A stretch of DNA of 61,726 nucleotides from an uncultured archaeon. Lineage in GTDB: Archaea; Thermoproteota; EX4484-205; JAAOZP01. The translations under genes and the position numbers were made by a program. Location of the stretch: contig CALIBN010000018.1 in NCBI GenBank assembly GCA_938045545.1, positions 1-61,726 on the forward strand, in the 5' to 3' direction. Below, one piece after another: positions 10,236 through 54,888 of the stretch (position 1 is its first letter; each line of letters opens with the position of its first letter). The notes below the pieces were generated by a model, which worked only from the letters and a program-made list of their open reading frames with translations, was not told where the DNA came from and made no database searches.

Positions 10236-10334
10236 GGGCCCGTGGCCAAGCCAGGATAAAGGCGTCGAGAGGATTTTGACCCTTGCGCAGGCCTGCGGAG
10301 CCGGAGAACCTGGGTTCAAATCCCAGCGGGCCCG
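10236..10334 (+). tRNA. tRNA-Arg(GCG) with a 23-nt intron at non-canonical position 29/30 (10268..10290)
   Basis: Acceptor stem GGGCCCG/CGGGCCC, T-arm CTGGG-TTCAAAT-CCCAG. After splicing the anticodon arm is TCGGC-CTGCGGA-GCCGG. BHB central helix GCGT/GCGC. Confidence 0.9.
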
Positions 10335-37135: not shown

Positions 37136-38248
37136 TTGCCTAGAAAAGGATGGTGCGGCTTTGATTGCAGGGGATGCCCGTATTTTCATAAGCTCTGCCG
37201 TGGTTGTTCTTTCAAAATGTGCCTCATAGCACAATGCCAGAGAGGTTTCCAATATACCGGAATAACCTATCCCAAATCCTTCTGCAGGCTCCGGCCTTAC
37301 TGCCCAATTAAAACGGCAAATAGACCCTCTGTGCAAATATCTTCATTAAGCAAAAGGTCTATGACCAAAATCGGTTTCGAAAGATTCATCCCTCAAATCG
37401 ATATCAGTGATAAAAAGTCGTGGTTCTGGAGGCATGGCGTAGAATTGCCAGAAATATTTGTTCCTCTTTGGCAGCTCTTGATTAATGAGAACCTCCTTGA
37501 AGATGTCTCCTCAAAAGGCTTGCATGACTTCTTAGGGTTTAATGGAAAGATTTTCCTTTCGATGGTGATGCCAGACGAGCTTCTCGATAAGCTTAGGCTT
37601 AAGGATTATTTCAGGCTGGTTGAAAATCTTGGGCCGGATGCTACAATGATTCCAGACAACTACACTTACGTAGATGACCCGCTTTTCCTATCATGGTCTC
37701 AGACAGTTAAACTCGTTTCCCTCGCCAACGACTTCCTAAAGCTGGACACACCCTTAATCGGCTTGATTAAGGGTTCTAATCCTCTTCAGGTTGATTGGGC
37801 TATTAGGAGGCAGGTTGAAATGGGCTACGTTTCCTTCGCGATGCCCGCTAGAGAACTTTTAGAGGATAACCTGCTTGACGATCTTTTACCTGGGGCCATT
37901 ATGAGCCTTAAATGGATCTCGAAGAGGACTAAAACGGATTTCGAGCTATTAGTATATGGCGTAGGCCGTAGGCTGAAATATGGAGGGCTTAGCTACAGCA
38001 ATCTTTTTTGGTTTCTAGAGGCTAAACAAGGACACTACTTTAAAGGAGGAAAATTGTACAGCTTCAAAGATCCGGAAATCAGGTTTGAAGAGTGCACTTG
38101 TGAAGCATGTAGAGGGATGATGCCGCAGGAATTGATCGACCTGATGCTATGCGATAAGGAGCTGGGTCTCAAGACACTTGCTCTCCACAACCTACTCGAC
38201 ATGAATAGAGCTTTTAACGAGAGGAAGGTAAATGGGCGGGGGCTCTAG
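37136..38248 (+). CDS. Cys-rich N-terminal domain fused to a divergent tRNA-guanine transglycosylase (TGT)-like fold
   Basis: GLHDFLGFNGKIF, LGPDATMIPD, LIGLIKG, LLVYGVG and C-terminal Zn site CTCEAC...LALHNL. The DSGG motif is absent. Confidence 0.65.
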   Translation: MPRKGWCGFDCRGCPYFHKLCRGCSFKMCLIAQCQRGFQYTGITYPKSFCRLRPYCPIKTANRPSVQISSLSKRSMTKIGFERFIPQIDISDKKSWFWRHGVELPEIFVPLWQLLINENLLEDVSSKGLHDFLGFNGKIFLSMVMPDELLDKLRLKDYFRLVENLGPDATMIPDNYTYVDDPLFLSWSQTVKLVSLANDFLKLDTPLIGLIKGSNPLQVDWAIRRQVEMGYVSFAMPARELLEDNLLDDLLPGAIMSLKWISKRTKTDFELLVYGVGRRLKYGGLSYSNLFWFLEAKQGHYFKGGKLYSFKDPEIRFEECTCEACRGMMPQELIDLMLCDKELGLKTLALHNLLDMNRAFNERKVNGRGL

Positions 38249-39143
38249 GGTTAAGCAGTATGAAAGGAGATTCTTCGAGGGAGAGCAAGTACGAGGAGAA
38301 AGAGAAGAAGAGTCCTTTCATGTCTTAAGGACCTTTGAGAAATATGAAGTTCGCGAATCAGAAGGCGGCGGATATGAATTGCTTAAAGGTGGTGAAGTTA
38401 TCGGAATCTTTTCTGAAGCCAAGGTCGAGGAAGGCAGAATTGTTTTTACGCTGGGTAAAGGAATGAGTTTGGAAATTTTAGAGAGAAAAGCTAGAGAAAT
38501 ACTTGCTCCAGGAAAAGCAGAGTTATGCGGTCTAATAGCTTCTGACGGTGGAATTTACATTAATAGTGAGAAAGGCGTATACGAGGTTTATTTCGATAGT
38601 GAGGATAGGGAACTCGCCGAACTTTTCATTAACTTAATTGGAGAAGTCTATCACGAAACTGCTCGCGATTACATCCGTTTTGAAGACACGGGAGAAGGGA
38701 AGAAAACTTACCATAAGCCAAGGATATACAGCAAGAAGATAGCTTACGATTTAGCGGACCTAGGCATTAAGGGGCCAGAGGACTTTGAGTTCCATCCGCC
38801 TTTGAACCATTTAGACGAAGAAGGGAAAAGAGCATACTTAAGGGGTTTCTTCTCTGGCGACGGAAACATCTCCATGACAGGAGAGCGCGTCCATAGTATT
38901 CGTGTCTACTCAACATACAAGGAAGGGTTGGAAGAAGTGAGACAGATGTTCATAGACTTAGGATTTCATCCTCACGAGATTCGCACAGACCATAGGAAAC
39001 CAGGATGGCGCGATCTACATAGTTTTACTATTCCTGCAGAGGACCACCTGAAATTCATAGAGGAAATAGGCTCTAGGAAGCCGGAGCACGTGGAAAGGCT
39101 TCAACTGATAAAAATAATAGATGAGAGGAAGGAGAAGGATTGA
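38232..39143 (+). CDS. Free-standing double-motif LAGLIDADG homing-endonuclease-like protein
   Basis: ELCGLIASDGGI and YLRGFFSGDGNI motifs. No intein Cys1 or His-Asn termini. Confidence 0.85.
   Translation: MGGGSRVKQYERRFFEGEQVRGEREEESFHVLRTFEKYEVRESEGGGYELLKGGEVIGIFSEAKVEEGRIVFTLGKGMSLEILERKAREILAPGKAELCGLIASDGGIYINSEKGVYEVYFDSEDRELAELFINLIGEVYHETARDYIRFEDTGEGKKTYHKPRIYSKKIAYDLADLGIKGPEDFEFHPPLNHLDEEGKRAYLRGFFSGDGNISMTGERVHSIRVYSTYKEGLEEVRQMFIDLGFHPHEIRTDHRKPGWRDLHSFTIPAEDHLKFIEEIGSRKPEHVERLQLIKIIDERKEKD
39077..39125 (+). repeat. 49-bp direct repeat, copy 2 (3' end of the LAGLIDADG gene)
   Basis: GAAGCCGGAGCACGTGGAAAGGCTTCAACTGATAAAAATAATAGATGAG. Confidence 0.95.
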
Positions 39144-40288: not shown

Positions 40289-40458
40289 AAAGTTAATATA
40301 GTGGCCGAGTGGTCTCCGCTAAGGAGGTGTGTATCATACGCATGACTAGTAAAGCCCAAAGGGGGCGAGACTACCTGCGTTACAGAGAGAGCGACACCTC
40401 TATCACAGACCGTTGAAAAACAATATCGTTTTAAACCTGTTTTAGGAGGGGGTTCGTA
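40289..40458 (+). promoter_or_regulatory. leu operon promoter and leader (BRE/TATA AAAGTTAATATAG, RBS AGGAGGTG, motif AGGGGGCGAGAC)
   Basis: Three elements shared, in the same order and with similar spacing, with the ilv leader at 53998..54176. Confidence 0.7.
40342..40416 (+). CDS. Putative leu leader peptide MTSKAQRGRDYLRYRESDTSITDR
   Basis: uORF behind a strong RBS. Its single Leu codon lies in the RGRDxLR motif shared with the ilv leader. Confidence 0.55.
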   Translation: MTSKAQRGRDYLRYRESDTSITDR

Positions 40459-41997
40459 ATGGTTTGGAGAGGATATATTGCTGAGGCGAAAATACCTGAC
40501 AGGGTGGTTCTTTTCGACACTACTCTAAGGGACGGTGAGCAGACCCCGGGGGTCGCGCTTACGCCTGAGGACAAGCTTAAGATAGCGAGGCAGCTGGACG
40601 CGCTTGGAGTACCCGTATTAGAAGCAGGCTTCCCGGCGACATCGCGTGGCGAGGAGGAGGCTATTAGGCTGATAGTTAGAGAAGGGTTGAACGCGGAGAT
40701 CGCTGCCCTATCCAGATGCCTAAAGGAGGATATTGAGAAGGCCGCTTCAACCGGCGCAGGCAGAATACATCTCTTCATAGCGACCTCTGACATACATTTG
40801 AATAAGAAGCTGCAGATAAGCAGGGATGAAGCCGTACGCAGGGCGGTTGAATCCATAGACCTCGCTAAATCCTACGGTATGAAAATAGAGTTTTCAGCCG
40901 AGGACGCGACTAGGACGAGCATTGATTTCCTAGTGGAGTTTTACAGGAGGGTTGAAGAAGCGGGGGCAAGCACAGTCGATATTCCTGATACTGTTGGCGT
41001 TGCAACACCCTTCGCCATGAGGGAGATTGTTAAGAGGGTTTGCGAAGCCCTGAGGATCCCGGTTGCGGTACACTGTCACAACGACATGGGCCTAGCTGTC
41101 GCGAACACGCTTGCAGGCATTGAGGGAGGAGCTGCTGAGGCGCATGTAACAGTCAACGGGCTTGGAGAGAGGGCTGGAAACGCTAGCCTGGAGGAGGTGG
41201 CGGTTTCCCTGAAAGTATTATACGGCGTTGAAACAGGCTTGAAGTTTAAAGAGATATACAACACCTGCAGGCTGGTCTCCCTGATAACCGGTATAGCAAT
41301 ACCTGTGAACAAGCCTATAGTTGGGGAAAACGCTTTCTCCCATGAGAGCGGGATCCATACTCACGGCATAATAGCATCCCCAGAGACTTATGAGCCGATA
41401 GACCCAGGGTTCGTCGGGGCTCGGAGAAGGCTGGTGGCCGGGAAGCACGCCGGCGTCCACGGGATTTCAGCGCAGCTTGAGGAAATGGGGTATAGGCTGA
41501 GCGAGGAGGAGTTGAAACAGGTTCTTAAAATAGTTAAGGATATTGGCGACAAGGGTAAGAAGGTTACTGACGCGGAACTCGCCTCGATAGCTGAAAGCGT
41601 TATAGGATACGGGGTCGGCGAGAAGGACCGCATCGAGCTTGAAGAGCTTCTGGTGGTTACAGGGTTGAACACGACGCCGACGGCAACAATAAAGATAAGG
41701 AGAGGGGAACAGGCCTGGAGGGGAGCTGAGTTCGGAGTCGGGCCGATAGATGCTTCGATGAAGGCGGTCAGCAGGCTTCTCGGCGACCTGGTTAAGATAA
41801 AGCTTGAAAGCTTCAGGCTGGAGGCGATCACGGGAGGCACAGACGCGCTTGCAGAGGTCACGGTCAGGGTTTCAGACGATGAGGGGCGGAGCGTGACTGC
41901 GAAAGGATTCAGCGAGGACATTGTGCTAGCAGGGGTTTACGCGATACTGAATGGGGCCAACAGGCTTCTGCAGATTAGGAAGAGGGCCGTCAGATGA
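40459..41997 (+). CDS. leuA: 2-isopropylmalate synthase (LeuA/CimA family)
   Basis: DTTLRDGEQ, HCHNDMGLA, GERAGNA, HESGIH, C-terminal regulatory domain. Confidence 0.88.
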   Translation: MVWRGYIAEAKIPDRVVLFDTTLRDGEQTPGVALTPEDKLKIARQLDALGVPVLEAGFPATSRGEEEAIRLIVREGLNAEIAALSRCLKEDIEKAASTGAGRIHLFIATSDIHLNKKLQISRDEAVRRAVESIDLAKSYGMKIEFSAEDATRTSIDFLVEFYRRVEEAGASTVDIPDTVGVATPFAMREIVKRVCEALRIPVAVHCHNDMGLAVANTLAGIEGGAAEAHVTVNGLGERAGNASLEEVAVSLKVLYGVETGLKFKEIYNTCRLVSLITGIAIPVNKPIVGENAFSHESGIHTHGIIASPETYEPIDPGFVGARRRLVAGKHAGVHGISAQLEEMGYRLSEEELKQVLKIVKDIGDKGKKVTDAELASIAESVIGYGVGEKDRIELEELLVVTGLNTTPTATIKIRRGEQAWRGAEFGVGPIDASMKAVSRLLGDLVKIKLESFRLEAITGGTDALAEVTVRVSDDEGRSVTAKGFSEDIVLAGVYAILNGANRLLQIRKRAVR

Positions 41998-43259
41998 CTG
42001 GTTTAACGGCAATACAGAAAGTGGTTTCCAAGAAAACAGGCAGGCCCCGCGTGGAAGTGGGTGAAATAGTGGAGGCTAAGGTGGATTTTCTAATGCTGCA
42101 CGAGGTGACTGGGCCGCTGGCTGTCGAACAGTTTGAAAAAATCTCTGGGAAACCCTGGGATCCCAGCAGGGTGATAGTGGTTTTCGACCATGATGTCCCC
42201 CCGAGCACGATAGAGCTGGCCAGCCAGATGAGGAGGATGAGAAGCTTCGTTAGAAAACACGGGGTAAGAAACTTCTTCGAAATAGGGAGGGGAGGCATAG
42301 CTCACCAAGTCCTCTTCGAAGAAGGCTTCGACGTGCCCGGCTGCCTGATAGTCGGCGCGGACAGCCATACTTGCACAGCCGGGGCGACCGGCGCAATTGG
42401 AATAGGCGTCGGCTCTACTGATGCTGCTGTCGTCCTAGCCACTGGAGAAATATGGCTGAGGGTTCCTGAAACACTGCTGGTCGAAATTAACGGTAGGCTT
42501 AGGAAAGGAGTTTTCGCGAAAGACGTCGCTTTAAGCATCGTCGGGAAAATCGGCAGCAATGGGGCGACCTACAAGGCTCTTGAGTACTCGGGTGAAACAG
42601 TAAGAATGATGTCCCTGTCTGAACGCCTTACTCTTGCAAACCTCTCCGTGGAGACTGGTGCTAAAACCGGAATCGTTCAAACAGATTCTAAAAGCATTGA
42701 GTACGCTGAGCAATACGGGAAATGCAGCGGGCTGCTTGAAGTAAGAAGCGACCACGACGCAGACCTTGAGAAGATCGAGATGGATGTTTCAAACCTGGAG
42801 CCTGTTGTAAGCTTGCCGCACAGCGTGGACAACGTTAAGCCCGTTGCAGAGGTTGAAGGCCTTGAGATAGACCAGGCTTTCCTAGGCTCCTGCACGAATG
42901 GGAGGCTTGACGATCTTCACGTAGCCTCCAAGATACTTAGGGGTAGAAGGATCGCGCCGGGTGTAAGGCTGGTGGTCAGTCCGGCTTCAGTCAAAGTGTA
43001 CACGGAGGCTTTGAGAGCAGGAATCATCGAGGAGATTGTGCGAGCCGGTGGAATAGTGACGAGCCCCACGTGCGGCGCATGCCTAGGAATGTCCAGAGGG
43101 GTCCTTGCAGAAGGCGAGGTTGCTGTTTCAAGCAGCAACAGGAACTTTATAGGAAGGATGGGCGATAAGAAGAGCAGAGTGTTCCTCGCCTCCCCAGCGA
43201 CGGTGGCTGCGTCAGCAGTGGAGGGGAAAATAACTGACCCGAGGAGGCTTCTGGCTTGA
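41994..43259 (+). CDS. leuC: 3-isopropylmalate dehydratase large subunit
   Basis: GADSHTCT, GSCTNGR, CGACLG, SNRNFIGRMG. Confidence 0.9.
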   Translation: MTGLTAIQKVVSKKTGRPRVEVGEIVEAKVDFLMLHEVTGPLAVEQFEKISGKPWDPSRVIVVFDHDVPPSTIELASQMRRMRSFVRKHGVRNFFEIGRGGIAHQVLFEEGFDVPGCLIVGADSHTCTAGATGAIGIGVGSTDAAVVLATGEIWLRVPETLLVEINGRLRKGVFAKDVALSIVGKIGSNGATYKALEYSGETVRMMSLSERLTLANLSVETGAKTGIVQTDSKSIEYAEQYGKCSGLLEVRSDHDADLEKIEMDVSNLEPVVSLPHSVDNVKPVAEVEGLEIDQAFLGSCTNGRLDDLHVASKILRGRRIAPGVRLVVSPASVKVYTEALRAGIIEEIVRAGGIVTSPTCGACLGMSRGVLAEGEVAVSSSNRNFIGRMGDKKSRVFLASPATVAASAVEGKITDPRRLLA

Positions 43260-43753
43260 AAATACGCGGCAGGATTATTAGGCTTGGCGACAATGTGGAC
43301 ACAGACGTTATAATACCTGCAAGATACTTGGTGACTCATGATGCTGAGGTTCTTGCAAAACATGTTTTCGAAGACTATTATCCTGAATTCAGGGCGAAGG
43401 CGTCTGGTGGAGCAATAATAGTTGCTGGTGAGAATTTCGGGCTGGGGAGCTCCAGGGAGCACGCGGTAATAGCTTTGAAACACTCCGGTGTGAAAGCCAT
43501 AGTCGCCAAGTCCTTCGCGAGAATCTTTTACAGGAATTCTATAAACCTGGGTCTTCCAGCGCTTGTCATCAGGGAGGCTGAGGGTTTAGACAGGCTTAAG
43601 GATGGGGATGAGGCTGAGCTTGACGTTGCCAACGGGGTTTTAACGATTATCAAAACCGGGGAGAAGTTTTCCTGCGATAAAATGCCTGAATTCATCATGA
43701 AAATAATAGAGGCGGGGGGTTTAATAAACTATTTTTTGAAGGAAAACGGTTAA
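43256..43753 (+). CDS. leuD: 3-isopropylmalate dehydratase small subunit
   Basis: DNVDTDVIIP, NFGLGSSREHA, SFARIFYRN. Confidence 0.9.
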   Translation: MKIRGRIIRLGDNVDTDVIIPARYLVTHDAEVLAKHVFEDYYPEFRAKASGGAIIVAGENFGLGSSREHAVIALKHSGVKAIVAKSFARIFYRNSINLGLPALVIREAEGLDRLKDGDEAELDVANGVLTIIKTGEKFSCDKMPEFIMKIIEAGGLINYFLKENG

Positions 43754-48135: not shown

Positions 48136-49152
48136 CTAAAGCCTGAAGCTGGCCTCCATGCTTGGACGTATCGGTTTAGAATCGTAGCCGAGCCTCCTAA
48201 GCTCCCTGGAAAACTCCTCCGGGAAACCATGGACTGTGAAAACCCTCTCCGGACTTGTTTCCCTCACGATTTCCATGAGGCCGTTGAAATCAGCATGGTC
48301 GCTCAACGGGAAAGCCTTGTCCACGCCAAGCGCCTCACTGTACCAGTTGAAAAGCGATCTGCCTGAGAAGCTTATGAAGACAGCCCCATACTTCCTTTTG
48401 ACAAGTTGCATGAAAGCATTCCTGCCTGAGACATTTGGATAGTATAGAGCCCAGGAGCCGTCCGGCAGCTCCGAGGACTGGGGTGTGAAAACCTTCTTCC
48501 CCCTTATTCCCACGGAGAAAAGCCTGTACACATTGTTATACTCAGCTATGGATGGTGAAACATATGTTTCAACAACACCCTGGAGAACAGGGTCCAGAAC
48601 CATTTGAACATGCTGAGACTTCCCCAGCGGATACCCCATCAGAACCATTGGCCTCCCCTTCCTGACCGTTTCACTCACGTAGTCGACAATCTCGCCTATC
48701 AGCTGTCTCCTCGGGGGGAAAACAAGGCTGGGACGGCCGTAGTTAGACTCTATTATCAGCGTGTGAACCCTCGGGAAGCGTTGCCTAGGTATGCTTTCAA
48801 CCGGTGAAGTGTTAACGTCCCCCGTGTACAGTATTCCACCCATATCTGTTTCCACGAGCAGGGCTTTAGACCCCAGAATATGGCCTGAGTCTAGAAGAAT
48901 GAAAGGATTCTGCTCTGCACGCTTGACTTCAAGCCCCCTTAGGGTCGAGAGCAGAAGAGTCTCCTCCGAGCATACTGCCAGCGTTCTCCTAGCGTCAGAC
49001 TTACCCAGATGGTCGAAGTGAGCGTGAGATATGAAAAGATAGTTCAAAGCCTCGTCGGAGCCTATTTTCAGAAGCGCTTCCCCTTCTCTCAGGCGAATGG
49101 TTGCGAAACGGTCAAGCTTAACCGAAAAACCCTTTGAGCATGCTGCAGACAT
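48136..49152 (-). CDS. MBL-fold beta-CASP-like nuclease
   Basis: SHAHFDH, SGHILGS, YTGD, ESNYG, LSDHAD, TVHG. Confidence 0.8.
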   Translation of the reverse strand: MSAACSKGFSVKLDRFATIRLREGEALLKIGSDEALNYLFISHAHFDHLGKSDARRTLAVCSEETLLLSTLRGLEVKRAEQNPFILLDSGHILGSKALLVETDMGGILYTGDVNTSPVESIPRQRFPRVHTLIIESNYGRPSLVFPPRRQLIGEIVDYVSETVRKGRPMVLMGYPLGKSQHVQMVLDPVLQGVVETYVSPSIAEYNNVYRLFSVGIRGKKVFTPQSSELPDGSWALYYPNVSGRNAFMQLVKRKYGAVFISFSGRSLFNWYSEALGVDKAFPLSDHADFNGLMEIVRETSPERVFTVHGFPEEFSRELRRLGYDSKPIRPSMEASFRL

Positions 49153-49155
49153 CGG

Positions 49156-50802
49156 CTAGGTGAAAAACCTGTTTCCCCTCAGCTTAGCTAGAAACCGGCT
49201 TTCAAGCCTCTTAGCCGGCGGAGCCCATTTCCGCCTCCTTTCTTCAAGATCATCACTGTTGACGAGCAGGTCAAGCCTCCTGCCCGGCACGTCTACAAGT
49301 ATCTCGTCGCCATCCTCCACGAGCGCTATTGGTCCGCCAGCGTACGCCTCTGGAGAAACATGGCCTACCGCAATACCGCTCGTGCCGCCGGAGAACCTTC
49401 CGTCGGTGACAAGCGCAACCCTTTCAACAAGCTTCCTTCCGACTATGAGTGAAGTTGGCATGAGCATTTCACGCATCCCTGGGCCGCCTAGAAGCCCCTC
49501 GTAGCGCACGACGACCACGGTGTTCACCGTGAAATCCTCTTTCTCAAGAGCTTCAACAGCCTCCTCCTCAGAGTTGAAAACCCTAGCCCTGCCTCTGAAC
49601 GTTCTAAGCTGAACAGGAGTCCCGGCGAGCTTAATCACAGCACCCTCTGGCGCCAGGGATCCCCATAGCACCGCTATGCCCCCTTCACTCCTGTAAGGGT
49701 TATCCGGGGAACGTATGAACGTGCCCCTCGGATCAGGAAACTCTTCGACAAGCTGCCTGAGGCTTTTACCAGTAACAGTTAGAACATCAAGGTTAAGATG
49801 TTTTCTAAGGATCTTCATAAGCGAGGGGACTCCGCCAGCGTTGTAAAAGTCAAACATGAGTCCTTCGCCAGACGGTCTCATCAGAACCAGCGTAGGTATC
49901 CTCCTGCTCAGCTCGTCGAAAGCCTTCAGCGAAAGCTCGTAGCCAGCCTCCTTGGCTAGAGCACTCAGATGGAGAACAGTGTTGGTGGAGCCTCCTAGAG
50001 CATTGTCGACAATTATCGCGTTGACGATGCTTTCAGGCTTAACAATATCCTTGAACCTTAAGCCCTCCCTCCAGAGCCCGACTATCCTCCTCCCAGACTC
50101 GTATGCGAGATTCTTCTTACCCTCGTCCTCAGCGTGAGTAGCAGCCATGCCCGGGAGCGACAGGCCCATCGCCTCAACAAGGCAGGCCATGGTGTTCGCA
50201 GTGAACAGGCCGGCGCAGCTCCCGGCACCCGGGCAGGCGACCCGTTCAAACTCCCTCAGCTCCTCAAGCGTAATCCTCCCCTCACGGTACTCTCCCAGGG
50301 CCTCGAAGACTGAAACCAGGTCCACCCTCCTCCCCTTGAACACGCCCGGATACATGGGGCCGCCTGTGACGAATATAGATGGAAGGTTCAGCCTTGCCGC
50401 CGCCAGCAGGTGGCCGGGGACAATCTTGTCGCACGAGGATATGAAGACCAGGGCGTCGAACATGTGTGCTGAAACCATTATCTCAACCGTGTCCGCGATA
50501 ACCTCCCTGCTAGGCAGCGAGAACCTCATCCCATCATGGTTCATAGCAATACCGTCGCAGACGGCGATCGTGTTGAAGACGAAGGGAACTCCGCCCCCGT
50601 CTCTAACACCCTTTGAAACGTTTTCCGCGATCACGTCGAGGTGAACATGCCCCGGCACAACGTTAGTGTAGGAGTTAACTACGCCTATGAAAGGCTTGTC
50701 GAAATCCCCGTTCCTCAATCCTAGTGCGTGGAGCAGAGCCCTGTGCGGAGCCCTGTCCACACCCTTCTTTACAGCGTCGCTCCTCATCAAGCCTTTTCTC
50801 AA
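49156..50802 (-). CDS. ilvD: Dihydroxy-acid dehydratase
   Basis: CDGIAM, CDKIVPG, CAGLFTANTM, GGSTN, TDGRFSG. Confidence 0.95.
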   Translation of the reverse strand: MRKGLMRSDAVKKGVDRAPHRALLHALGLRNGDFDKPFIGVVNSYTNVVPGHVHLDVIAENVSKGVRDGGGVPFVFNTIAVCDGIAMNHDGMRFSLPSREVIADTVEIMVSAHMFDALVFISSCDKIVPGHLLAAARLNLPSIFVTGGPMYPGVFKGRRVDLVSVFEALGEYREGRITLEELREFERVACPGAGSCAGLFTANTMACLVEAMGLSLPGMAATHAEDEGKKNLAYESGRRIVGLWREGLRFKDIVKPESIVNAIIVDNALGGSTNTVLHLSALAKEAGYELSLKAFDELSRRIPTLVLMRPSGEGLMFDFYNAGGVPSLMKILRKHLNLDVLTVTGKSLRQLVEEFPDPRGTFIRSPDNPYRSEGGIAVLWGSLAPEGAVIKLAGTPVQLRTFRGRARVFNSEEEAVEALEKEDFTVNTVVVVRYEGLLGGPGMREMLMPTSLIVGRKLVERVALVTDGRFSGGTSGIAVGHVSPEAYAGGPIALVEDGDEILVDVPGRRLDLLVNSDDLEERRRKWAPPAKRLESRFLAKLRGNRFFT

Positions 50803-51782
50803 CCGTACACCATCGACCTTATTTTCCTCCCAACTGTCTCTATCATGTGGTTTCTCTCCCTTTCAACAAGAGTCTTCAGAACAACCTGGTTGGAACTGTT
50901 CTCCAGTATCCACTCCCTTGCGAAAACACCTGTCTGAACGTCTTCAAGGAGCTTCCTCATCTTCCTCTTAACATCCTCGTCTATAAGGATTGGGCCGCGC
51001 GTAAGGCCGCCGTACTTAGCGGTGTCGCTGACAGCCTGCCACATGCCGGATAAGCCTTTAGACCAGATGAGGTCGACGATAAGCTTCAGCTCGTTTAAAA
51101 CCTCGAAGTACGCAACCTCAGGCTGGTATCCTGCTTCAACAAGGATTTCGAAGCCGCTTTTAATGAGCGACGAGACCCCGCCGCATAGAACAGCCTGCTC
51201 GCCGAAAAGGTCTGTCTCAACCTCCTCCTTGAAGGAGGTCTCTATCAAGCCGATTCTACTCAGCCCAACAGCCTTAGCAACCTCCCTGACTGTTCTCGAA
51301 GCATTACCGGTGTAATCCTGGTGGACAGCAATCAAGCCGGGGACCCCGGTTCCGCGGACATACGCGTCCCTTAACGCGGGGCCTGGCGCCTTAGGAGCCA
51401 CGAGTACAACGTCGAGCCAAGGGGAGGGGACAATCTGCCTGTAGTGAACGTTGAAAGCATGCGCGAAAACCAGTGTCGAACCCTTTGAAACATTCGGCTC
51501 AACATGATCCCTGTAGACAGCAGGCTGAGCAGGATCAGGTATGAGCATGAGAATAATGCTGCTCCTCTTAACGGCTTCGCCTATCTCGTAGACTTCGAAA
51601 CCGTCCTCGGAAGCCCTTTTCCACGAGGAGCCTTCTCTTCTCAAGCCTATTATCGTCTTAACGCCGCTGTCCCTGATGTTCTTAGCCTGAGCCTCACCCT
51701 GGGAGCCGTAGCCTATTACGGCTACAGTCTTATTCTTAATCAACTCAATGCTTATCTCGTCATCCCTTATTATCCTGGCCAT
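50799..51782 (-). CDS. ilvC: Ketol-acid reductoisomerase
   Basis: GYGSQG, APKAPG, ETDLFGEQAVLCGG. Confidence 0.95.
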   Translation of the reverse strand: MARIIRDDEISIELIKNKTVAVIGYGSQGEAQAKNIRDSGVKTIIGLRREGSSWKRASEDGFEVYEIGEAVKRSSIILMLIPDPAQPAVYRDHVEPNVSKGSTLVFAHAFNVHYRQIVPSPWLDVVLVAPKAPGPALRDAYVRGTGVPGLIAVHQDYTGNASRTVREVAKAVGLSRIGLIETSFKEEVETDLFGEQAVLCGGVSSLIKSGFEILVEAGYQPEVAYFEVLNELKLIVDLIWSKGLSGMWQAVSDTAKYGGLTRGPILIDEDVKRKMRKLLEDVQTGVFAREWILENSSNQVVLKTLVERERNHMIETVGRKIRSMVYG

Positions 51783-51827: not shown

Positions 51828-52316
51828 TTACTTTCTGAAACGGTTCAGAGTGTGAATCATCACGCCGCTCCTGGAGAAGCTTTCAATACGGTCTTTAAAC
51901 TCCTCCTTGAAATCGTCAACCGTCCTGGGGTCGGCTAGGAGCTCGACTAGAAGCCTGGAGCCGCTGAGCAGGGTTGTCCTAGCCCTATACCTGACCCGAA
52001 TATAGTCGCTCACGCTCGTGTCGCAATCCTTCAGCACAGCTACGAAGGCCTCCCTTATCACGTCGTACTCCAGAGAACCCGTCTTAACCTCGAAGACGCA
52101 CGGGTTCTTCTCAAGAACCTTCACGATGTTTTCAAACTTCTCCCGAGGCAGGCTGAAGGTCAGCGATATCTCAGAGGTCTTTCCGTTCACCATGCCGACA
52201 GTGATCGTGTCAATGTTTATCGCCCTCCTTGCGAATATTGAGGATATTCTCTCCATCACGCCAGGCATGTTTAGAACCCTGAGCACGATGAACCTCTTAT
52301 TCTCATCTGAAGCCAT
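51828..52316 (-). CDS. ilvN: Acetolactate synthase small (regulatory) subunit
   Basis: ACT domain NMPGVMERISSIFARRAINIDTITVG. Confidence 0.85.
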   Translation of the reverse strand: MASDENKRFIVLRVLNMPGVMERISSIFARRAINIDTITVGMVNGKTSEISLTFSLPREKFENIVKVLEKNPCVFEVKTGSLEYDVIREAFVAVLKDCDTSVSDYIRVRYRARTTLLSGSRLLVELLADPRTVDDFKEEFKDRIESFSRSGVMIHTLNRFRK

Positions 52317-52323
52317 TCAAGCC

Positions 52324-53997
52324 CTACCTCCTCACGATGACGCTGTCAAGCGGGGAAGCCGGGGGAACCATTGGGAAAACGTTATCCTCCCTCTCAACAA
52401 TAACGTCTAACACGGTCGCCTCATCCTGCTTCAAAGCGTTCTCAAGAGCCTCCTTAAGCTCGCTTATCCTAGTCACTTTAAACCCTCTGGCTCCGAAGCC
52501 CTCTGAAACCCTAGCTATGTCAGCCCTACCCTTCAAGTCCACAGCAATATACCTCCTTCCGTAGAAAAGCTCCTGCCACTGCCTCACCATCCCCAGGAAA
52601 TAATTGTTGAGAACAATGACTATGATCGGCAGATTATAGTCGACTGAAACCGGAAGCTGGTTGCAAGTCATAAAGAAGCTTCCGTCCCCAGCTATGTCGA
52701 AGACACGGCTCCCCGGGAAGGCTGCCTTAACCCCGATCGCAGCCGGAAGCCCGAAGCCCATTGTGCCAAGACCGCCGGAGGATATGAACTGTCTTGGACG
52801 CCTGGCTGTGAAGTGGAGCGAAGCATACATCTGGCACTGACCCACCTCCGTCGTCACAAAGTCTTCAGCCCTAACGTAGTCGTTCAAAACCCTGACTGCG
52901 GCGCTCGGGTCAACTGGGACAGCATCGTAATCGTAGAGGAACTCGGACTCCTTCTTAAGCTGCCTCACCCTTTCACCCCATGCTCCAGCCTTACCCTTCT
53001 GGAAAAGCCTGAGAATCGTGCTGCGAATCCTGCTTAGAACCTGCTTAGCGTCGCCGGCGATGCCTAGGTCAGGCTTAAGCAGCTTCCCGATCTCAGACCT
53101 ATCTATGTCAACATGAATCTTCCTAGCCCCCGGGGCGAAGCCGCTTAGCTTACCAGTGGTCCTGTCGCTGAACCTCATTCCCACTGCGAAAACAAGGTCG
53201 CTCTCCTGAACAGCCTTGATCGCGGCGAGCCTCCCGTGCATCCCAACCGCGCCTAGGGATAACGGGTGATCCTCGGGAATACACCCCTTACCCATCAGCG
53301 TCGTCGCCACGGGAGCGTTTAGAAGCTCTGCCAAAGCAACAAGCTCGCCTGACGCGCCTGATATTATGACCCCGCCGCCGGCGATGAACACAGGCCTCTC
53401 AGCCTCAACCAGCATCCTGGATGCTGCTAGAATCTCCTCGTCGGAAGGAGAGGGGGGAGCATAAGAGTAAACGTAGAAATCATCGTCAGGCTCACCCTCC
53501 ATAAGCTGAACATCCCTAGGGACATCTATGTGGACAGGCCCAGGCCTCCCGGATAAGGCTATTTTAAAAGCGTTCTCTAAGGCGGAGTTAAGCTCGTTCA
53601 AATCCCTGGGTAGAAAGTTCATCTTAGTCAACCCTATCATCATGGAGAAAACATTAGCCTCCTGGAAGCCGTCGTAGCCTATGAGCGGCGTCGCAACCTG
53701 TCCGGCTATGCTTAAAACCGGCGAGGAATCCAGATAGGCGTTGGCAATCCCAGTTGCAAGATTGGTTGCGCCAGGCCCTGAAGTCGCGACGACGACGCCG
53801 ACCATGCCGGTCGCCCGGGCATAGCCGTCAGCCATGTGGGCAGCACCCTGCTCATGCCTCGTCAGAATGAACTCTATGTCGCTCGCCTTATACAGCTCAT
53901 CTAGGAACGGGAGCACAGCCCCACCAGGCACTCCGAAGATGGTTTTAACCCCGTTCTCCCTCAGCTTCTCCACTAGCAGCCTAGACCCTGAAACCAT
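52324..53997 (-). CDS. ilvB: Acetolactate synthase large subunit
   Basis: RHEQGAAHMADGYAR, TSGPGATN, SGGLGTMG, GDGSF, GMVRQWQ. Confidence 0.95.
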   Translation of the reverse strand: MVSGSRLLVEKLRENGVKTIFGVPGGAVLPFLDELYKASDIEFILTRHEQGAAHMADGYARATGMVGVVVATSGPGATNLATGIANAYLDSSPVLSIAGQVATPLIGYDGFQEANVFSMMIGLTKMNFLPRDLNELNSALENAFKIALSGRPGPVHIDVPRDVQLMEGEPDDDFYVYSYAPPSPSDEEILAASRMLVEAERPVFIAGGGVIISGASGELVALAELLNAPVATTLMGKGCIPEDHPLSLGAVGMHGRLAAIKAVQESDLVFAVGMRFSDRTTGKLSGFAPGARKIHVDIDRSEIGKLLKPDLGIAGDAKQVLSRIRSTILRLFQKGKAGAWGERVRQLKKESEFLYDYDAVPVDPSAAVRVLNDYVRAEDFVTTEVGQCQMYASLHFTARRPRQFISSGGLGTMGFGLPAAIGVKAAFPGSRVFDIAGDGSFFMTCNQLPVSVDYNLPIIVIVLNNYFLGMVRQWQELFYGRRYIAVDLKGRADIARVSEGFGARGFKVTRISELKEALENALKQDEATVLDVIVEREDNVFPMVPPASPLDSVIVRR

Positions 53998-54176
53998 TTA
54001 AAACACCCCTTGCAAACAGCCTTTTGAAAACCCCTGTTTCCCTAGCGGAGGCTTGGCTTGCAGCGGGACTCCTGCAGTTGGCGGACGGTGTCCCGCCCCC
54101 TTGGAGCGTGAATACTATGGTACACTCAGCGCACCTCCTAAGCAGTTTGCCCACGGGGAGGCCTATATTAACCTTT
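53998..54176 (-). promoter_or_regulatory. ilv operon promoter and leader (BRE/TATA AAAGGTTAATATAG, RBS AGGAGGTG, motif AGGGGGCGGGAC)
   Basis: Mirrors the leu leader. Contains a GCGGGAC/GTCCCGC stem. Confidence 0.7.
54042..54125 (-). CDS. Putative ilv leader peptide MYHSIHAPRGRDTVRQLQESRCKPSLR
   Basis: GTG start 6 nt after AGGAGGTG. RGRDxVR motif. Confidence 0.55.
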   Translation of the reverse strand: MYHSIHAPRGRDTVRQLQESRCKPSLR

Positions 54177-54189
54177 CCCCTTATGCAGG

Positions 54190-54888
54190 CTAAATATCGT
54201 CGATGCGAACATTCCTAGCTACTATAGAACATACGAATAAGGCTGAAAAGAAGAGCACTACAGAAAGGATCAGAATCGCTATAATCAGTTTGAACAATAC
54301 GTCGGACTCAAACATTTTAAGAAAGGGAGGAGTGGATGATTGGCTTGACTGCTGATTAAGCTTAACCGCCGCGCTGAAAACAAGCGTCATCAAGCTGAAA
54401 ACAATCAAGCAGAGAAAGACTGCCTTTGAACTAGCAAGTTTTCTAAAAACCTCTTCGGAGAAAACGTATCCGAAGGATAGTGAGAGAAGCCAGTTGCCGT
54501 GCGTAATTAAGAGAAAATACATAAGGCTCGAAATTACTTCGCCTCGTAAAAAATTGATTGAAGGTGTTAAAACTATTAGCGTCTTTAGCTCTAAAAGAAT
54601 AAGGGAAACCAGAGAGTGCACCAGCAAAGGCATGTACTCAGATGTGTTAACGTAAAGCCCCAGTTTAACCCCCCTGTTTAAAAACTCTTTACGCCAGATC
54701 TCAAGCTCAAAAAACGTTGAGAAGAGAACAATCATTACCCATGCCACTGGAAGCAGGGGAACAAGGTGTTCAAAGTTAGCTGAGTATACTATGATATAGG
54801 CCAACAATGCTGCTGGAGCAAGCTCCAGCACTATTAAGAGCGGCGAGGTGAAGAAGAACTTCAGCTCCCGGTCGAGAAGGTTAGCCAA
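54190..54888 (-). CDS. Multi-TM protein, probable ABC-2 type permease
   Basis: About six TM helices, directly downstream of the ABC ATPase-like gene. Confidence 0.55.
   Translation of the reverse strand: MANLLDRELKFFFTSPLLIVLELAPAALLAYIIVYSANFEHLVPLLPVAWVMIVLFSTFFELEIWRKEFLNRGVKLGLYVNTSEYMPLLVHSLVSLILLELKTLIVLTPSINFLRGEVISSLMYFLLITHGNWLLSLSFGYVFSEEVFRKLASSKAVFLCLIVFSLMTLVFSAAVKLNQQSSQSSTPPFLKMFESDVLFKLIIAILILSVVLFFSALFVCSIVARNVRIDDI

Follow-up and report, generated by a model that had tools for sequence, protein, structure and literature searches.

Matching short open reading frames upstream of leuA and ilvB in an uncultured archaeon: candidate ribosome-sensed leaders with an internal Shine-Dalgarno-like element

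Two leaders of common design

The window analysed here, i.e. the entire stretch of 61,726 nucleotides (nt) of contig CALIBN010000018.1, comes from an uncultured hot-spring archaeon of the Thermoproteota (assembly GCA_938045545.1; 2,027,007 bases in 51 contigs, hereafter G000) and harbours two divergent branched-chain operons, leuA-leuC-leuD (40459-43753, + strand) and ilvB-ilvN-ilvC-ilvD (53997-49156, - strand), for which NCBIfam confirmed the LeuA/LeuC/LeuD and IlvB/IlvN/IlvC/IlvD identities. Each operon is preceded by ~170 nt that carry identical elements in identical order, and these two leaders, together with the short upstream open reading frame (uORF) enclosed in each, are the subject of the present analysis. 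Our comparisons covered 16 congeneric genomes and nine from the other three families of the order; they are based on 16 distinct leu and 15 distinct ilv leaders of the genus (31 altogether), to which the ilv leader of G017 (a genome from another family) was added as the 32nd.

Both leaders open with a box of the form AAAG(G)TTAATATAG that resembles a B recognition element (BRE) followed by a TATA box, and continue, after a gap of 22-25 nt, with a Shine-Dalgarno (SD) sequence (SD1, GGAGGTG), a start codon and the short uORF. Within the latter, a box reading A-AGG-GGG-CG(A/G)-GAC lies 29 nt after SD1 and is followed by one variable codon and by CTG (leu) or GTC (ilv), referred to below as the putative sensor codon. 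Further on come a C/U-rich segment that mimics the 16S rRNA 3' end (ACACCTCT or CCTCC, termed the anti-SD mimic), the stop codon, an A/T-rich spacer, a second SD (SD2) and the enzyme start (Table 1). An earlier reading of the window, made from the letters alone (the sequence-only reading), had described a pair of candidate leader-peptide attenuators at these sites, and we recovered all of its elements, coordinates and both peptide readings in place, including the distances that separate the uORF stops from the enzyme genes (42 nt between TGA at 40414-40416 and the leuA ATG at 40459; 44 nt between TAG and the ilvB ATG at 53997). It had also pointed to a single Leu codon in the leu uORF and a single Val codon in the ilv uORF; both counts hold, and the two Leu and one Ile that accompany the one Val in the ilv peptide had gone unmentioned.

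Table 1. Features of the two leaders and of the operons that follow them
Feature	Position	Strand	Remarks
leu BRE/TATA-like box AAAGTTAATATAG	40289..40301	+	TTAATATA at 40293-40300; kept in 16/16 leu leaders
leu SD1 GGAGGTG	40323..40329	+	perfect complement of the 16S 3' tail; invariant in 16/16 leu leaders
leu uORF MTSKAQRGRDYLRYRESDTSITDR, 24 codons + TGA	40342..40416	+	frame open, in-frame start in 16/16
leu internal SD-like G-run A-AGG-GGG-CGA-GAC (Arg-Gly-Arg-Asp)	40359..40371	+	12-mer AGGGGGCGAGAC at 40360-40371
leu putative sensor codon CTG, only Leu of the uORF	40375..40377	+	7 nt after GGGGGCG; CTG in 16/16
leu anti-SD mimic ACACCTCT, inside the uORF	40394..40401	+	complementary to SD1 (8 bp), partly to SD2
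leu A/T-rich spacer	40417..40443	+	AAAAC...GTTTT inverted repeat, two T4 tracts
leuA SD2 AGGAGGGGG	40444..40452	+
leuA (2-isopropylmalate synthase)	40459..41997	+	NCBIfam; followed by leuC 41994-43259 and leuD 43256-43753
ilv BRE/TATA-like box AAAGGTTAATATAG	54163..54176	-
ilv SD1 GGAGGTG	54132..54138	-
ilv uORF (M)YHSIHAPRGRDTVRQLQESRCKPSLR, 27 codons + TAG	54042..54125	-	GTG start 54125-54123; TAG 54044-54042
ilv internal SD-like G-run A-AGG-GGG-CGG-GAC	54090..54102	-	12-mer AGGGGGCGGGAC at 54101-54090
ilv putative sensor codon GTC, only Val of the uORF	54084..54086	-	then conserved CAA CTG (Leu codon 54077-54075)
ilv anti-SD mimic CCTCC	54047..54051	-	in-frame Leu CTC two codons before stop; complementary to SD1 and SD2
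ilvB SD2 AAGGGGTG	54004..54011	-
ilvB (acetolactate synthase large subunit)	52324..53997	-	NCBIfam
ilvN, ilvC, ilvD	51828-52316, 50799-51782, 49156-50802	-	NCBIfam; downstream of ilvB

As the leu BRE/TATA-like box ends 22 nt before SD1, the transcript probably begins at or just before this SD. The spacers between TATA box and SD1 (40301-40322 and 54139-54162 in the window; loci L001-L059; 22-27 nt) can form hairpins or palindromes, which score better than 95% of shuffled sequences in 12 of the 31 leaders, are absent in the others and differ among species (e.g., GGCGGAG/CTCCGCC, GCCCCC/GGGGGC); if such a hairpin were transcribed, the start site would not be where we place it.

Within the window alone the recurrence of the 12-mer is weak evidence (two matches with one mismatch allowed, 0.61 expected, and 16 of 100 shuffles reaching two). 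The genome-wide search that the sequence-only reading had suggested placed the 12-mer solely ahead of leuA and ilvB in the 2.03-Mb G000, and the promoter box and the combination GGAGGTG-N25-36-GGGGGCG likewise occur at these two sites only. With the related pattern GGAGGTG-N26-36-AGGGGGCG we obtained exactly two matches per genome for G000 and for 14 of the 16 congeners; of the remaining two, G015 (82% complete) has a single match and G001 (0.6 Mb, 70% complete) has none, nor has any of the nine genomes from the other families. The reversed pattern, used as control, gave two matches in the 26 genomes. The paired occurrence is real and not a product of chance.

Beyond the genus, an ilv-type pattern (AAGGGGGCG-N5-CCGTC) was sought in 401 genomes of the phylum (the reversed control gave two matches) and recovered from G000, 14 of the 16 congeners and G017, and once from G045, where it lies inside a long open frame and was taken as a chance match. 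A metagenome scan with a genus-excluding pattern returned at least 119 stretches; not one of the matches listed stood ahead of a relative of ilvB or leuA or had a TATA-like box on its upstream side. Likewise, a crude scan of G000 for an SD, a short ORF, a second SD and a long ORF in succession produced 23 candidates, among which only the leu and ilv leaders were convincing. Among all genomes covered, the leader element is confined to two families within a single order. In the remaining families, these queries retrieved neither LeuA nor IlvB from three genomes of f4 (G019, G021, G023), and in one genome of f3 (G020:C149:4744-12306; L160, L162, L164) leuA and ilvB are neighbours within a larger cluster, where an ilvD-like gene and another LeuA-like gene precede them and no SD-led leader is present.

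Conservation of frame, codon and box among relatives

In a 54-nt core read in the frame of AGG GGG CGR, none of the 31 leaders contains a stop codon; the other two frames hold 13 and 15 stops in the leu leaders, and 1 and 18 in the ilv leaders. An in-frame start follows the perfect SD1 at 4-12 nt in every relative examined, as would be expected of a translated frame. Of the 31 leaders, 25 start with GTG (24 of them at 6 nt past SD1, and L006 at 4 nt), and the seven leu leaders without a GTG at the position equivalent to that of the ilv leaders, the window's among them, have an in-frame ATG two codons on, 12 nt after SD1. Since this ATG replaces the lost GTG in frame, ATG 40342 is the likely start of the leu uORF, and the ATA that the sequence-only reading had offered beside it can be set aside. 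The frame has also passed through length changes, namely a 2-nt deletion between SD1 and the start in L006 (which additionally keeps an in-frame ATG two codons downstream of its GTG) and a 6-nt deletion within the ORF in L011.

The putative sensor codon always lies 15 nt after the A of AGG, and no relative keeps the nucleotide motif while losing the frame or the cognate codon, the outcome that the sequence-only reading had named as refuting its proposal: all 16 leu leaders have CTG, and all 15 ilv leaders as well as that of G017 have GTC. The ilv leaders furthermore keep CAA CTG two codons past GTC, and in 11 of the 15 the anti-SD mimic includes a CTC (Leu) codon two codons ahead of the stop; their cognate codons (1 Val plus 1-3 Leu/Ile) are scattered, and a dense tail of branched-chain amino acid (BCAA) codons appears only in G017. 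The position of the stop is not conserved, as four ilv leaders stop 21 nt earlier through a 3-nt deletion and nevertheless keep the mimic, which argues that the mimic acts as an RNA-level element.

The ilv leader of G017 extends these comparisons across a larger distance (the IlvB proteins are 56-57% identical), over which motif, frame and Val codon have all been retained. Upstream of its ilvB we found TTAATATA, followed after 52 nt by AAGGGGGCGATACCCCGTC, and the ORF in the R-G-R frame reads MVMSMVRCTRGRYPVYQILCVL, with three in-frame ATGs, the first of which stands ~27 nt after the TATA box; this short distance suggests a leaderless message, and the uORF is, judging by this spacing, probably leaderless. 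It ends in V-Y-Q-I-L-C-V-L, with Val, Ile or Leu specified by five of its last eight codons; the terminal bases of this ORF (UCUCUG) complement the CAGAGG of the ilvB SD, with a T6 tract in between, and its tail looks like that of a conventional ilv leader peptide. No such leader precedes leuA in G017, and the genus may therefore have gained its leu leader as a copy of an older ilv leader in which the codon was changed.

The nature of the G-run box departs from what had been proposed, i.e. an RGRD peptide conserved as such. Although GGG accounts for only 26% of the Gly codons, neither GGG nor AGG ever changes synonymously in the box, the codon before them is otherwise variable but always has A as its third base, and the D is replaced by E in L014 and by Y in G017. 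The R-G-R part is invariant in residues and in nucleotides alike. The bases that vary (A/G, then C/T/A, and in G017 also the first base of GAY) are nearly all third codon positions, and the A/G variation fits equally with A-U or G.U pairing to the 16S tail. The 16S 3' ends in the assembly all read GGATCACCTCC, and the predicted duplexes with the box at 37 °C (-13.1 kcal/mol for leu, -12.0 for ilv and -13.8 for G017) are close to those of SD1 (-13.9 for leu, -13.6 for ilv; -9.4 for the ilvB SD), which is why we regard the box as an internal element of SD strength. By comparison of the leaders, the conservation of this box is at the nucleotide level, and, going by the predicted duplexes, 'internal SD-like element' is the more fitting name for it. 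GGGGGCG is separated from the putative sensor codon by 7 nt and GGAGGTG from the true start by 6 nt, so that a 16S tail paired to the box would, on the general SD-start spacing, bring the sensor codon to or next to the decoding centre. The Arg codons of the box are rare in G000 (CGA 3.1%, the rarest; CGG 5.5%). Internal initiation at the box was considered and rejected, there being no ATG, GTG or TTG downstream at a fitting distance.

Outside the box, pairwise counts in the core of the leaders revealed no synonymous excess in any frame, as would be expected of a leader peptide whose sequence is unimportant, and a mild excess was found in frame 0 of the leu leaders downstream of the box (95 vs 68 expected, and 54 vs 31). 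The 16S 3' ends themselves, found on contigs C16, C20 and C36 of G000, are three different ones that share GGATCACCTCC and diverge in their downstream sequences, and the G000 bin may thus hold rRNA pieces from more than one organism.

The complementarities were examined by consensus folding. In the leu leaders RNAalifold gave an SD1:mimic helix of eight pairs, kept in nearly all 16, and in the ilv leaders a mimic:SD2 helix of five pairs, kept in 14-15 of 15. A CACCTC or CCTCC occurs within 45 nt past the sensor codon in 13/16 leu and 15/15 ilv leaders, the chance of finding them in a 45-nt window of the genome being ~0.009 and ~0.09, respectively. In G000 the leu mimic prefers SD1 (-7.1 kcal/mol at 65 °C) to SD2 (-5.9), and the predicted fold of its leu leader is better than that of most shuffles (z = -2.68; 4 of 200 equally good) and includes a second domain in which the uORF end pairs with the leuA start region. 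The ilv G-run is able to form a local hairpin with the CCGTCC.CC that follows it. For an attenuator in the classical transcriptional sense the folds give no support, since no terminator/antiterminator pair is evident in the consensus folds of the leu and ilv leaders, and the spacers carry T tracts of T2-T6 only. Archaeal termination may need nothing beyond T tracts, and therefore control at the level of transcription is still conceivable. The comparison with Rfam leader families came out negative as well: the window, at the gathering threshold, matched four tRNAs and no leader family, and at E <= 10 the leu leader had no match and the ilv leader a single chance one (to a lncRNA, E = 3.2).

An indication that such leaders are transcribed came from a hot-spring metatranscriptome (run X5), 3-5% of which yielded 133 matching reads, mostly 90-95% alike. 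Over 53372-54300 the first mates fall mainly on the + strand (depths of 5.99 and 3.59, vs 0.45 and 0.17), which, as in most stranded libraries, points to RNA of the - strand, i.e. that of ilv. Eight reads had loose ends at 54074, and their 30-nt consensus, reverse-complemented, matches by eye the ilv leader of L041, from its Leu codon region through the anti-SD mimic; hence the ilv leader of a congener is present in RNA. Two further RNA runs (X3 and X4) gave no matching reads and carry no weight either way, and none of the listed runs contained the window's own sequence as RNA.

A proposed ribosome-sensed leader and its rivals

We reason that each leader may be a regulatory uORF for which the ribosome serves as sensor, in other words a leader-peptide attenuator that works chiefly at the level of translation, an interpretation to which we give a little less than an even chance. 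Comparison establishes the elements, the frame, the identity of the sensor codon and the complementarities; on these, the following course of events could be built. The mRNA would begin at or just before the perfect SD1, and a ribosome would translate the uORF (20-27 codons) from this 5'-terminal SD. Nine codons in, it would meet the SD-strength G-run A-GGGGG-CG-R (Arg-Gly-Arg, with its rare CGA or CGG), which would base-pair with that ribosome's 16S tail and so keep the pathway codon at the decoding centre, this being CUG (Leu) for leuACD and GUC (Val, then Leu codons) for ilvBNCD. How long the ribosome dwells there would be set by the charged tRNA. The mimic (CACCUCY), 13-35 nt further on, could take as partner either SD1 of the uORF or SD2 of the enzyme gene. 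If charged tRNA were short, the ribosome would stay ahead of the mimic, SD1 would capture it, the uORF would be shut and SD2 would be free; with translation flowing, ribosomes would re-open the SD1:mimic helix, SD1 would be occupied anew and the mimic would mask SD2. A simpler version may apply to G017 and to the CTC of most ilv leaders, in which the stalled ribosome would sit on the mimic itself.

Several observations weigh against this reading. The direction of the switch is its weakest step and obtains no support from folding models: when a stalled ribosome was modelled in partition-function folds by forcing 28 nt to be unpaired at either the sensor codon or the stop, the mean unpaired probability of SD2 at 65 °C across the 31 leaders was 0.54 in the free state, 0.53 when stalled and 0.56 with the ribosome at the stop, and in some leaders the minimum-energy fold of the stalled state pairs the mimic with SD2, the wrong direction for induction by starvation. 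In the leu leaders the mimic lies 13-19 nt past the A-site codon, so that a stalled ribosome would not cover it. Covariation is nearly absent (double changes in 1 of 22 pairs for leu and 2 of 27 for ilv), and the helices therefore rest on conservation and complementarity; neither the ilv leader (z = -0.42) nor that of G017 (z = +0.93) is predicted to be more stable than its shuffles. Moreover, 13 of the 16 leu leaders have a single Leu codon and no cognate run, and neither the sensor codons nor AGG/GGG show synonymous variation, so that their conservation could reflect a constraint on the RNA or DNA alone. We infer, rather than observe, the position of the transcription start and the response to amino acids, and the same applies to translation of the uORF, to pausing and to the sign of the switch. 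Taken as a whole, the interpretation given in the sequence-only reading is partly supported.

That the box is conserved at the level of nucleotides (the third-position A and the invariant AGG and GGG included), and that the G-run takes part in local hairpins, would also fit another kind of sensor, be it a trans-acting RNA-binding protein or small RNA or else the leader RNA itself in the manner of a riboswitch, which would read the A-GGGGG-CG-R box and its hairpin, the uORF being incidental or needed for ribosome loading only. In the case of the actinobacterial LEU element, a similar leuA leader with a uORF, the authors favoured a protein-binding site over classical attenuation (PMC1262725). 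We hold such a sensor to be unlikely, given that it leaves the strict frame, the relocation of the start and the pathway-matched codon at a fixed distance without a reason, and that no Rfam family match, no covariation and no regulator gene adjoining either operon speak for it. The in-frame R-G-R of two families and the match between the +2 residue and the pathway product could instead belong to a nascent arrest peptide of the type R-G-R-(D/E/Y)-x-(L/V), which would sense free Leu or Val and, at high levels, stall the ribosome such that SD2 becomes masked. An opposite sign of the switch would suit this possibility, and in the masked folds of L001 and L041 the ribosome stalled at the sensor does move the mimic onto SD2, i.e. 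in the correct sense for repression. It nonetheless appears distinctly unlikely: the amino-acid conservation is inseparable from that of the nucleotides, the D varies (E in L014, Y in G017), the flanking residues change freely without synonymous excess, and the known ligand-sensing arrest peptides, such as TnaC and the fungal arginine attenuator peptide, are not known to need a cognate codon. Three SD-like boxes in series, the lack of a clear switch in the folding models and the presence of one cognate codon only might equally be expected if the leaders were constitutive, the uORF and boxes serving for ribosome loading or standby and for mRNA stability in two highly expressed operons, with no amino-acid sensing involved. 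It would then be odd that the element precedes only the two branched-chain operons, that its sensor codon follows the pathway and that the G017 uORF has a BCAA-rich tail, and we rate this account as very unlikely. The chances are slimmer again for boxes that act as DNA operators, through which a transcription factor would co-regulate both promoters: both leaders share the spacing of the box from the promoter, the box ahead of the G-run forms a partial palindrome (CGCTCC AAG GGGGCG), and the spacer between TATA box and SD1 is prone to hairpins or palindromic in the 12 leaders mentioned above, but the motif lies ~35-50 bp downstream of the presumed start site, changes in the palindrome's left half preserve G.U pairing and not DNA symmetry, the spacer palindromes differ by species, and the behaviour of frame and start codon goes unexplained.

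A further alternative arises from the +1 frame, which between the box and the gene shows no stop before the region of the gene start in any of the 32 leaders; the three exceptions all fall at the start codon (-6 in L040, -2 in the window, TAATG, and +1 in G017, ATGA), and the other stop triplets (~27 distinct events) are all in frame 0 or +2. A rough post-hoc binomial test gives p ~0.001-0.01 on sequences that are related and not independent, and we treat the pattern as a lead, not a result. For the leu leaders, this frame is not open immediately ahead of the box and in 15 of 16 lacks a start codon, and so it could be entered there by a shift only. On this basis, a programmed frameshift at the G-run might let +1 ribosomes traverse the spacer as far as the leuA or ilvB start and so couple the translation of the enzymes, the device consisting of an SD-like stimulator (the box has the strength of an SD in the predicted duplex), a G5 run that permits -2/+1 re-pairing, and a rare or hungry codon (the rarest Arg codon follows GGG), perhaps with coupling to transcription through the T-rich spacer. 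We consider it highly improbable all the same, because CCC alone, among the codons ahead of the sensor (UAC, CAC, AAY, ACC, CCC), would be able to re-pair in +1, the amino acid sensed by shifting at the G-run would be Arg rather than Leu or Val (the G5 run could re-pair in -1 or -2 and precedes the rare Arg codon, not the Leu/Val codon), the +1 frame is free of coding constraint (81 synonymous changes vs 81 expected), its stop ranges from -6 to +34 relative to the gene start, and the test was chosen post hoc. A -1 frameshift was rejected, the -1 frame of the leu leaders carrying stops at many positions.

Returning to the ribosome-sensed uORF, its most specific form would be a G-run-tethered ribosome for which a single Leu or Val codon, 7 nt on, reports the charging of tRNA, with an outcome that depends on re-partnering of the mimic or on +1 read-through, and with a leu leader that is an ilv leader re-specified by one codon; this full combination strikes us as rather unlikely.

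Known leader peptides and a second archaeal lineage

Leader-peptide attenuation is a textbook bacterial mechanism, and archaea, which also couple transcription and translation, terminate transcription differently. With the enterobacterial leu and ilv leaders those described here share a short, apparently translated ORF ahead of the leuA or ilvB operon, codons for the product and an ilv version that mixes Val and Leu; in contrast to them, the archaeal leaders have neither cognate runs (one codon in most leu leaders) nor a terminator/antiterminator, and they possess an internal SD-like G-run and an anti-SD mimic. In the translational attenuation of erm and cat genes, a stall ~9-14 codons into the leader ORF re-pairs segments and changes access to the SD of the next gene, although the signal there is an antibiotic together with the nascent peptide and there is no amino-acid codon logic of the kind proposed for the leu/ilv leaders. 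The +1 frameshift of Escherichia coli prfB employs an internal SD-like G-rich hexamer just upstream of a slow A-site codon that acts as sensor, and the leu and ilv leaders similarly carry an internal SD-like run upstream of the putative sensor codon; prfB, however, senses a stop and its P-site re-pairs in +1, whereas the leaders present a sense codon and poor re-pairing.

In the full-text literature, with most subscription journals and supplements outside it, we found no published description of archaeal leader peptides or attenuators, and 'attenuat' does not occur in PMC13675443. Mycobacterial polycysteine leaderless short ORFs constitute a 'Cys ribulon' (bioRxiv 10.1101/834739). The ilv leader of G017 closely resembles this system in being probably leaderless and in having BCAA codons that overlap the complement of the ilvB SD, and the leaders of the genus differ from it by their SD-led uORF, single sensor codon, second partner SD1 and SD-like G-run. 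The actinobacterial LEU element comprises a uORF with Leu codons before leuA, a leader segment that pairs with the leuA SD, and a conserved pseudoknot in which the run of Leu codons pairs with the SD (PMC1262725). The uORF before leuA and the segment complementary to the SD of the gene are common to both cases, as is the ambiguity between ribosome and factor as sensor; the element is bacterial and has no sequence relation to the archaeal leaders.

Twelve leuA loci of the Methanomassiliicoccales (L140-L143, L145-L149, L155-L157) were found to have a conserved leader of their own, located ~100-200 nt upstream of the LeuA match (which starts at 1501, or at 454/477 in L143/L146). It consists of a TATA box and, ~25 nt later, of ACCGTCAGAGGTCAT and an ATG that opens a uORF of 12-18 codons ending in a run of 3-5 Leu/Ile codons (MIFAQHIGLLLLE, MIFNNLAGLILLLIIE, MIYTAASGLVLL); between the uORF stop and the leuA start lie a hairpin and ATGACGGTTTGGTGG. 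A long-range helix between the 5' end and the segment before the leuA SD changes from ACCGUC:GACGGU to CCACCU:GGUGG in two loci, i.e. in a compensatory manner. This leader has no match in Rfam, and we found no published description of it. When the other 67 LeuA loci were searched for uORFs rich in Leu or BCAA codons before leuA, only the Methanomassiliicoccales group was convincing. The leader resembles those of the genus in its TATA box, in the ~25 nt that lead to an SD-led short uORF before leuA and in the long-range helix, and differs from them by its classical Leu/Ile run, the absence of a G-run and an unrelated sequence. By these features it has the appearance of a classical leader-peptide attenuator, found here in another lineage of archaea. 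With this leader, leuA in archaea has more than one instance of an upstream leader peptide, and the prior for ribosome sensing in the leu and ilv leaders is raised. As the Methanomassiliicoccales have cultured members, the question of archaeal leader peptides would become experimentally approachable.

To our knowledge, the use of the ribosome as a metabolite sensor by way of a leader peptide is undescribed in archaea. The design outlined above, if true, would give archaea their own form of ribosome-based amino-acid sensing, one that is unlike the bacterial designs in its single sensor codon, its internal SD-like element and an SD/anti-SD re-pairing that replaces the terminator, and the leaders offer compact predictions that can be tested by mutation.

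Three further observations concern the surroundings of the operons. A gene for a metallo-beta-lactamase/beta-CASP-type nuclease-like protein (48136-49152, - strand) follows ilvD on the same strand after a gap of 3 nt and may be co-transcribed with the ilv operon. At 10236-10334 (+) Rfam detects a tRNA of 99 nt (42.8 bits), which ARAGORN calls as tRNA-Gln (ttg) only with its intron option and which probably contains an intron; the ARAGORN tRNA sets are incomplete and differ with and without this option, and isoacceptors were not used for any argument. Lastly, two ORFs overlap at 37136-39143 (+), one of them weakly matching the C-terminal part of tRNA-guanine transglycosylase and the other carrying a LAGLIDADG_3 domain, an arrangement that may represent an intein or a homing-endonuclease insertion.

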